From Escherichia phage 212, in sequence record PQ765507: DNA of 64,000 nt; one strand, written 5' to 3'. A model generated the notes under the pieces. The model was not told the origin of the DNA, searched no databases, and was given only the letters and a program-made list of their open reading frames with translations. The position numbers were made by a program, and so were the translations under genes. This document shows positions 26,639 through 27,376 of this stretch, piece after piece. Within the stretch, counting starts at the first letter, position 1. Each line of letters starts with the position of its first letter.

Positions 26639-26650
26639 TATTTATAAATA
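26639..26650. promoter_or_regulatory. bidirectional late promoter (overlapping TATTTATA / TATAAATA) in the 53 / 4 divergent region
   Basis: Sequence TATTTATAAATA contains TATAAATA on both strands: minus-strand copy about 40 bp upstream of gp53, plus-strand copy 18 bp upstream of the HNH ORF. Confidence 0.55.
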
Positions 26651-26668
26651 CCTATGAGGAAAATATAA

Positions 26669-27376
26669 ATGAACTATCTAAAACATTACAATAACTTAAT
26701 CCAGCGAGCCAAAACTCGAGCACCCATTGATGGTTACAAAGAGAAACACCACATCATCCCAAGATGTATGGGTGGATTAGATACCGGTGAAAATTTAGTT
26801 GAGCTCACTGCTCCTGAACATTTTGTCGCCCACTTGTTATTGGTTAAAATTTATCCAGATAATCATTCACTTGCTCATGCCGCGAAAATTCTAATGGGCT
26901 CCAACAATTACAATAACAAACAATTTGAATGGGTGCGTATCCGCGCCGTTGAGACTTCCATTAAGTTTCACACTGGGCGTAAACGTTCAAAACAAACATG
27001 TGAAAATATTTCAAAAGCTCTTAAAGGTAAGAAATATGGTCCACGCTCTGAAGAGCATTGCAAGAAGTTGTCTGAAGCGGCTAAAGGCAAAAAATTCTCT
27101 GAAGAACATTGTAAGAAATTATCAGAAAGAGTGTTTACAGATGATTGGCGAGCAAAAATATCCAAGGTAAATAAAGAAAGAGTTTTGGTAAATCATAGTG
27201 AAAAAATAAAGCAAGGTATTACTGATGATGTCAGAAAACGTTTATCAGAGCTTAATAAAAATGCTCCCCGTCACACCTGTGAACACTGTGGAAAAATAAC
27301 AAATCCAGGCAACTATAAACGTTGGCATGGTGAAAATTGTAAGGTACTTAAAAATGGCGTACTCCGGGAAGTTTAA
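26669..27376 (+). CDS. free-standing HNH homing endonuclease with NUMOD3-like repeats
   Basis: 235 aa; HNH motif KHHIIPRCMGGLDTGENLVELTAPEHFVAH; tandem basic repeats SEEHCKKLSEAAKGKK / SEEHCKKLSERV; GAGGA RBS. Confidence 0.8.
   Translation: MNYLKHYNNLIQRAKTRAPIDGYKEKHHIIPRCMGGLDTGENLVELTAPEHFVAHLLLVKIYPDNHSLAHAAKILMGSNNYNNKQFEWVRIRAVETSIKFHTGRKRSKQTCENISKALKGKKYGPRSEEHCKKLSEAAKGKKFSEEHCKKLSERVFTDDWRAKISKVNKERVLVNHSEKIKQGITDDVRKRLSELNKNAPRHTCEHCGKITNPGNYKRWHGENCKVLKNGVLREV

Follow-up and report, generated by a model that had tools for sequence, protein, structure and literature searches.

A MobE-family homing endonuclease gene between genes 53 and 4 of Escherichia phage 212 and its linked gene 4 allele

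Escherichia phage 212 (sequence record PQ765507) displays an open reading frame (ORF) for a predicted homing endonuclease between genes 53 and 4. It was analyzed in a stretch of 64,000 nucleotides (nt), which is termed the window here and to which all positions refer. The ORF is on the plus strand at positions 26669–27376, starts with ATG, terminates with TAA at 27374–27376 and has a translated sequence of 235 amino acids (aa). The initial annotation, made from the letters of the DNA, had correctly placed a 235 aa ORF with an HNH motif between the two genes, however it began the feature at position 26639, which is not the start of the ORF and is the first base of a promoter palindrome described below. 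Gene 53 (25996–26598, from the ORF listing) is on the minus strand and its product gp53 matches Pfam family PF11246 (E-value = 6e-74). Gene 5 (24257–25999, from the ORF listing and the sequence) follows it on the same strand. A spacer of 70 base pairs (bp) separates gene 53 from the endonuclease ORF. On the other side is gene 4 (27354–27803, plus strand), which encodes a head completion protein with a TnsA-like nuclease fold (gp4 N-terminal domain PF08722, E-value = 6e-21). The start of gene 2, also on the plus strand, is at ATG 27800 by homology with phage SP18, and the ORF listing gives 27791.

The first 23 nt of gene 4 overlap the end of the endonuclease ORF. This overlap was proposed at the outset and is borne out by the gene 4 start at ATG 27354, which gives the sequence MAYSGK... 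and is the same in T4, SP18 and others. An in-frame ATG at 27327, which is the gene 4 start in the UPEC07 annotation, is an unlikely alternative and is located where the endonuclease ORF encodes a conserved WHG. In T4, genes 53 and 4 are also divergent, with zero genes inside a 47-bp spacer, in agreement with the initial annotation.

On sequence grounds the ORF product is a free-standing HNH homing endonuclease of the MobE family, and the original assignment to an HNH/NUMOD type is supported by MobE homology, by PHROG 655 and by the profile of the homologues. A BLASTP comparison with MobE of phage LZ7 shows 41% identity along the full length (E-value = 2e-42), is collinear over 232 columns and has an equal order of modules. 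The protein matches PHROG 655, “homing endonuclease”, with an E-value of 1.6e-60. A protein search yielded 401 homologues, 44 of which were aligned. In this alignment the HNH (beta-beta-alpha-metal) catalytic motif spans residues 23–55 (26735–26833, plus strand) and residues Y23, E25, H27, H28, P31, G36, N42, H51 and H55 are invariant. The string HHIIPRCMGG...N...EH..H, read earlier as an HNH motif, is found at residues 27–55. Residues 103–172 (26975–27184, plus strand) comprise three to four NUMOD3-like helical repeats, which are defined by Pfam matches of the homologues and presumably form a DNA-binding linker. The SEEHCKKLS repeats that had been seen in the translation are present in two copies, at residues 127–135 and 144–152, and are inside this region. 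The C-terminal end displays a CCHC zinc finger (C204, C207, H220 and C224; 27278–27340, plus strand), a presumed DNA-binding module. These four residues are at least 90% conserved in the aligned homologues and the motif is also found in MobE.

The window protein is itself below the Pfam thresholds and the HNH/NUMOD3 assignment is thus based on the Pfam matches of the homologues, the family-profile match and PHROG 655. The Pfam HNH domain (PF01844) is matched by 31 of the 44 homologues and NUMOD3 by 37. When compared with HNH motifs, the family profile matches McrA (E-value = 2.2e-4) and, more weakly, a group II intron maturase and Cas8-HNH. With the window protein alone, NCBIfam gives no HNH call and a single-sequence search of the PDB gives a weak McrA match (E-value = 0.64). 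The AlphaFold2 model has a predicted local distance difference test score (pLDDT) of 88. It predicts strands at residues 25–28 and 43–46 and a helix at residues 48–61, all with a pLDDT of about 95, and it places short helices over the NUMOD3-like repeats.

The ORF is free-standing between conserved genes and is outside any intron or intein; the empty sites are a simple 48-bp spacer. Paralogues of the endonuclease were looked for elsewhere in the window and none were found. The terminase-associated HNH endonucleases of cos phages were considered and rejected, since the neighbours are genes 53 and 4 and not terminase. Membership in that class is also contradicted by the dispensability of the gene in most relatives and by the NUMOD3 architecture, which is that of homing enzymes.

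The endonuclease protein of UPEC07 displays 98.7% aa identity to that of the window. The two ORFs differ at 35 nucleotides, and 31 of these differences are synonymous and four non-synonymous. The ratio of non-synonymous to synonymous substitution rates (dN/dS) is 0.03, which at the level of sequence comparison indicates a working protein under purifying selection. The differences are unevenly placed. All 35 fall within 26704–27202, i.e. in the first 534 nt, and the synonymous rate (dS) of the ORF is about 0.25. Over the final 170 nt of the gene there are zero differences from UPEC07, and gene 4 shows six. This distribution suggests an extra recombination point inside the endonuclease gene, or a closer donor that is unsampled.

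A megablast search of phage genomes with positions 25900–28100 finds the whole stretch in three records, UPEC07, TH22 and TH55, which are identical to one another here. About 18 genomes of the genus Gaprivervirus (SP18, VR20, VR7, VR25, VR26 and others) are exactly one insert shorter, and six genomes (RZ, P8, PSD2001 and others) have a third gene 4 type together with another endonuclease gene between genes 4 and 2. Presence/absence polymorphism is likewise found in Jiaodavirus, Tulanevirus and Karamvirus, where most members of each genus are without the gene. The initial proposal of a mobile insertion stands, as the site is empty in the approximately 18 Gaprivervirus genomes and in T4. The alignment with insert-free relatives that had been suggested to locate the insertion defines its boundaries and shows it to be polymorphic; for the target it gives an indirect indication, which is taken up below.

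In Gaprivervirus the spacer between genes 53 and 4 at the empty site is 48 bp long and has the sequence AAAGCCTCCATTTATAAATAAGTATATCAATATTTATTAGGAGGCTAT. Within this spacer are the late-promoter box TATAAATA of gene 4, a box in the opposite orientation that belongs to gene 53, and the Shine-Dalgarno (SD) sequences of both genes. The gene 53 box is a perfect TATAAATA in T4 and has seven of eight matches in SP18. Homology of the window to the empty site stops after CCATTTA (26612) and returns at the gene 4 ATG. Thus the insert replaced both native divergent late promoters as well as the AGGAGG of gene 4. To judge from these limits, the insert did not simply land on a native promoter and probably brought with it a compact palindromic promoter, an SD sequence of its own and a new SD sequence for gene 4. 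The gene had been described as sitting on the bidirectional late promoter. It does adjoin the palindrome, however the native promoters have been replaced and the palindrome is borne by the insert.

In Gaprivervirus, the block of genes 5-53-4-2-3 is a hot spot for differing inserts that resemble endonuclease genes. An additional 636-bp ORF is located between genes 5 and 53 in P896 and PSD2001 (window junction at about 25996–25999). RZ, P8 and PSD2001 have ORFs of 648–729 bp between genes 4 and 2 (window junction at about 27800), together with the third gene 4 allele, which is equally divergent. UPEC07 has a further insert between genes 2 and 3 (window junction at about 28624–28710). The window has the insert between genes 53 and 4 alone and none of those at the 5|53, 4|2 and 2|3 junctions.

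The palindrome TATTTATAAATA is perfect, is 12 nt long (26639–26650) and forms a TATAAATA box on each strand. The endonuclease gene is directly behind it, as had been noted. The plus-strand box (26643–26650) would serve the endonuclease gene, gene 4 and gene 2. The minus-strand half (26646–26639) is a perfect late box for gene 53 and would serve genes 53 and 5. This TATAAATA was also considered as the native promoter of gene 4, which was rejected. The native sequence by gene 53 no longer forms an intact box (TACAATAT), and the box in use is specific to the insert. The next plus-strand TATAAATA is at 29765. Consensus scanning between 26650 and gene 4 finds neither a TATAAATA nor a terminator-like site, so that late transcripts of genes 4 and 2 would pass through the endonuclease gene. 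The scan therefore supports, for these two genes, the read-through that had been proposed for their late expression. An internal terminator of the T4 mobE type was searched for in the ORF and is absent.

The putative SD sequence of the endonuclease gene is GAGG (26656–26659, plus strand), 9 nt before ATG 26669; the homologue in phage Pet-CM3-4 is preceded by a comparable string, GAGGAAAAT..AAATG. The putative SD sequence of gene 4, AAGG (27341–27344, plus strand), is also 9 nt before its ATG. It consists of the Lys225 codon plus the single base that follows it, and comes directly after the last zinc-finger Cys codon (27338–27340). All endonuclease-positive phages examined, i.e. those of Gaprivervirus, Tegunavirus, Tulanevirus, Jiaodavirus and Karamvirus and phage ELT4, display TG(T/C)AAG followed by a G-rich SD sequence before the gene 4 ATG. 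The AAGG is directly after the Cys codon in four of them and a few bases further on in Aeromonas phage 25 and ELT4. Since the Cys-Lys codons supply the SD sequence of gene 4, the element appears to be adapted to keep gene 4 translated.

Hairpins that sequester the ribosome-binding site (RBS) were not predicted at the endonuclease RBS or at the gene 4 RBS (z-scores +1.3, +1.3 and +0.4). Regulation by such hairpins is known for I-TevI, segB and Aeh1 mobE. The window thus differs from the several T4 endonuclease genes that are regulated by RBS-masking hairpins (PMC2988022).

A match to a sigma-70 or T4-early-like promoter, TTTACA-17 nt-TATACT with TG upstream of the -10 element, is at 26609–26637 on the plus strand and is regarded with low confidence. 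It has 10 of 12 consensus positions with an extended -10 and is the best match found by consensus scanning of 25900–28700; the empty site is without such a match. The -35 bases at 26609–26612 are common to the empty sites and the remainder, including the -10, is insert-specific. If true, the site would give early transcription of the endonuclease gene and gene 4. Phage KP182 shows a GTTTAC...TATAAA pattern match in its longer spacer.

The placement of these signals bears on whether the gene could be an inactive relic, kept just for the promoter and RBS signals of genes 53 and 4. With the gene 4 SD sequence inside the ORF and the promoter upstream, the gene would be needed in cis for gene 4 expression, and the sub-threshold Pfam scores are also what a relic might show. 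This explanation is nevertheless extremely improbable. The invariant HNH residues and the zinc-finger residues are all intact, and the 31 synonymous against four non-synonymous changes over the whole ORF argue for selection on the protein and not just on two short signals.

Comparison with the relatives shows that the window is an SP18-like backbone with a UPEC07-type patch of about 1.2 kb (approximately 26600–27800), which contains the endonuclease gene and all of gene 4. Sliding identity to SP18 is 97%–100% in most of gene 5, in gene 53 and from gene 2 onward, and identity to UPEC07 is just 84%–95% in genes 5 and 53. In gene 4, identity is 75%–82% to SP18/VR20 and 99%–100% to UPEC07/TH22. 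Informative sites are SP18-type at 60 and UPEC07-type at six positions in gene 53, at four and 96 positions respectively in gene 4, and at 34 and 13 positions in gene 2. The left crossover interval is at 26576–26612, between the last SP18-type site (26575) and the first UPEC07-type site (26613), and covers the gene 53 start codon (26596–26598) and its SD sequence (GGAGGC, minus strand). The right crossover interval is at the gene 4/gene 2 junction (27777–27846), between the final UPEC07-type site (27776) and the SP18-type site that comes next (27847).

The gene 4 allele of the window displays 98.7% nt identity to those of the three endonuclease-positive phages UPEC07, TH22 and TH55 only, and no more than 79% to every other allele. 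Compared with SP18, the proportion of synonymous differences (pS) in gene 4 is 0.72, i.e. saturated, with 83% aa identity, and pS in gene 53 is 0.13. The mobile unit here appears to be the endonuclease gene together with the complete gene 4, and not the endonuclease gene alone. As the cassette is present on two clearly different backbones, this unit of about 1.2 kb must have been transferred at least once. The comparative evidence, i.e. the patch and the short 5′ gene 4 tracts in other genera, is consistent with co-conversion of flanking markers.

Finer mosaicism is also seen away from this patch. The 3′ end of gene 5 (24257–24650) diverges from SP18, VR20, UPEC07 and TH22, with about 65%–67% identity at 24257–24500; the remainder of gene 5 is 93%–100% identical to SP18 and the 3′ end is another small mosaic patch. 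SP18 has a 2-kb RB43-like ORF between genes 5 and 6, and the window there aligns with the gene 5.1/5.4 region of VR20. Downstream of gene 1, there are 150 bp at 30051–30200 with 61%–63% identity to UPEC07/TH22 and 93%–97% to SP18/VR20, and about 300 bp at 35001–35300 that are common to VR20 only.

Homologues of the endonuclease (tblastn, 40%–61% aa identity) are found directly upstream of gene 4 in phiR1-RT (Tegunavirus), Aeromonas phage 25 (Tulanevirus), KP182 (Jiaodavirus), Pet-CM3-4 (Karamvirus) and ELT4. Two IMG/VR contigs are syntenic, and in three that are more distant a homologue is paired with a gene for a gp4-like protein. Aeromonas phage 25 has gene 5.1, on the same strand, upstream of the homologue and not gene 53; thus the endonuclease is linked to gene 4 rather than to gene 53. 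The association with gene 4 is old and widespread among T4-like phages, at least six groups of which display it, though the copy in the window was acquired by recombination. “Homing endonuclease” annotations at the same position exist for UPEC07 (QUL77590.1), Aeromonas phage 25 (PHG25p128nc, with the note “not conserved in 44RR”), phiR1-RT (g148), KP182, Pet-CM3-4 and ELT4. These are of the same family and position as the gene in the window, which differs in having the cassette on an SP18-like backbone. Two reviews (PMC2988022, PMC2993671) give no account of the 53|4 site, its target, a linked gene 4 allele or the mosaic patch.

A long-standing association of this kind, with the gene 4 RBS embedded in the ORF, would also be expected of a domesticated HNH protein that serves the phage by excluding competitors without homing, by autoregulation from the late promoter, or by DNA processing with the gp4 nuclease. 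The dN/dS of 0.03, the nuclease-like character of gp4 itself (PF08722) and the double role of T4 intron endonucleases as autorepressors (PMC2988022) are in keeping with this. However most members of each genus, including T4, SP18 and JD18, are without the gene yet viable, i.e. the gene is dispensable, and its patchy presence and absence is as in selfish elements. Domestication is therefore considered very unlikely.

The explanation that we favour with good confidence is that the ORF encodes an active MobE-family homing endonuclease and that homing copied the cassette, with its linked gene 4 allele, into an SP18-type genome. In a mixed infection with an SP18-type relative, the enzyme would nick or cut near the 53|4 spacer or in the 5′ part of gene 4. 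The break would then be resected and repaired from the carrier genome, so that the endonuclease gene and a presumably cleavage-resistant gene 4 are copied by co-conversion. The window genome would be a product of such a transfer, or of recombination with equal end points. The cassette would spare the host phage. Its palindromic TATTTATAAATA would replace the two native divergent late promoters and serve both directions, and it would bring its own SD sequence and recreate that of gene 4 in the last zinc-finger codons, with genes 4 and 2 expressed by read-through. Enzymatic activity, a nick or a double-strand break, and use of the promoters and SD sequences are presumed in this scheme. The HNH-class enzymes MobE and I-HmuI are nicking enzymes.

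Several observations count against this explanation. The window protein has no Pfam HNH match at E ≤ 0.01 and its NUMOD3 match of 18.8 bits is below the cut-off of 20.4. The promoter and SD assignments are consensus matches, and cleavage and preferential inheritance are predictions for this enzyme as well as for its close relatives. Gene 4 differences in Gaprivervirus cover the whole gene and point to no site, and the two candidate target regions described below are not both backed by all genus pairs. The boundaries of the patch coincide with the edges of the low-similarity region, and ordinary homologous recombination between the flanking homologies would yield equal boundaries.

The last point leads to a second explanation for the patch, in which the gene is a real MobE-like ORF and the block was swapped by ordinary homologous recombination, the endonuclease being a passive passenger or acting elsewhere. 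The crossover intervals are exactly where similarity to SP18-type genomes returns, and mosaicism with respect to SP18, VR20 and UPEC07 is found in the remainder of the window too. However a passenger would not readily account for the position of one gene family beside gene 4, which recurs in at least six T4-like phage groups, nor for the clustering of differences between endonuclease-positive and endonuclease-free alleles in the adjacent 5′ part of gene 4, which is seen in three genera besides Gaprivervirus. The strong purifying selection on the nuclease and the precedent of MobE (PMC2790892) are also against it. We regard this explanation as unlikely, and homing remains the preferred one.

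If homing is the cause, differences between endonuclease-positive and endonuclease-free gene 4 alleles may mark the target. These alleles were compared within four genera. In Karamvirus, eight of nine fixed differences are at nt 6–33 of gene 4. In Tulanevirus, seven are at nt 24–48 and others are scattered, and in Jiaodavirus all 38 are inside nt 6–148. In Gaprivervirus the alleles differ along the entire gene. What the genera have in common is the initial ~50 nt of gene 4, beside the insertion point, where the target presumably lies. The leading candidate for a recognition or immunity region is nt 6–48 of gene 4 (27359–27401, plus strand).

A second candidate site is at nt 90–102 of gene 4 (27443–27455, plus strand), where eight of 13 nt differ from SP18. 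This is among the densest clusters of SP18 differences, with residues 31–34 being YMFK vs WLMR, and it is homologous to the site of a +1 insertion in the gene 4 of endonuclease-positive Jiaodavirus and Tegunavirus. As the prime target it is weakened by the Karamvirus and Tulanevirus pairs, which show no fixed differences there and differ mainly or only at nt 6–48. Either location is plausible, because MobE nicks nt 122–126 of its downstream gene and co-converts the flanks (PMC2790892).

Endonuclease-positive Jiaodavirus, with two endonuclease alleles, and Tegunavirus have an additional nucleotide in gene 4 at codon 31. The sequence is CAGTTTCATGATG vs CAG-TACATGATG (KP182, 15882-1 and phiR1-RT vs JD18). 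This splits gene 4 into an ORF of 37 codons and an ORF of 118 codons, and the second ORF holds the whole TnsA-like domain. In Jiaodavirus the ATG of the second ORF is 7 nt after GGAG; in phiR1-RT there is just GGGA, further from the ATG. Gene 4 is intact in endonuclease-free members (JD18 and roughly 100 other records) and also in the window.

A tentative and rather doubtful extension of these observations is that gene 4 has been the long-term battleground of the endonuclease lineage, such that the module drives replacement of whole alleles and the +1 split bought resistance in Jiaodavirus and Tegunavirus. The basis for allele replacement is the saturation of synonymous sites though the flanks differ by 1%–3% of nt. 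If true, this would be a genes-in-pieces arrangement that arose from an endonuclease located outside the pieces, cleavage would fall at the split site or within the first 50 nt of gene 4, and gp4 would work either in the form of two polypeptides or through its C-terminal TnsA-like domain by itself. The constant pairing of the endonuclease gene with a frameshift-split gene 4 in these other genera could be of wider interest for the question of how selfish nucleases are tolerated by essential genes.

As a find the gene is modest. It is a clear though unremarkable instance of an established type of element, and its homologues are already annotated at this position. It would be a natural case of intronless homing with precise patch boundaries, in which an essential structural gene is carried along. 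The cassette also illustrates that a bidirectional late promoter and a ribosome-binding site can be replaced without disabling the neighbouring genes. With flanks that are 97%–100% identical, this phage or UPEC07 vs SP18 or VR20 would be a convenient pair outside T2/T4 for the study of homing, co-conversion and marker exclusion.

Among the closest known systems is MobE of T4 and LZ7. It is located between nrdA and nrdB, nicks nrdB at the positions given above, and its flanks are co-converted (PMC2790892). The endonuclease of the window shares with MobE the HNH motif, the NUMOD3 repeats and the CCHC finger, and is likewise free-standing, intergenic and just upstream of a conserved gene. It differs in its site, i.e. 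53|4 rather than nrdA|nrdB, and in its presumed target, gene 4. T4 mobE has no promoter of its own and contains a terminator inside the gene (PMC2790892, PMC2988022), whereas the window gene has a predicted late box and SD sequence of its own and no terminator-like site by consensus scan. By analogy, the element is in all likelihood of the same kind as T4 mobE and would work like it.

SegG and SegF are similar in that an intergenic endonuclease gene has its target in a neighbouring conserved gene, with co-conversion into endonuclease-free relatives (PMC2988022). However these and other marker-exclusion enzymes of T4 are GIY-YIG enzymes that make double-strand breaks, and the window enzyme is of the HNH class. 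I-HmuI of Bacillus phage SPO1, cited as a structural model for MobE (PMC2790892), is likewise an extended HNH enzyme of modular build, in which the catalytic domain is N-terminal and the DNA-binding modules come after it. I-HmuI differs in being intron-encoded, and searches with the window protein and its family gave no significant sequence or fold match to it.

Homing endonuclease gene (HEG) islands are recombination modules bounded by HEGs (Barth, Dunham and Seed 2023, PMC10448857). Here again a nuclease gene is at the edge of an exchanged block beside an essential gene, however the block in the window is about 1.2 kb with one essential gene and the endonuclease gene is on one flank only. 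The mosaic pattern fits the occurrence of nuclease genes at exchange boundaries (PMC10448857).

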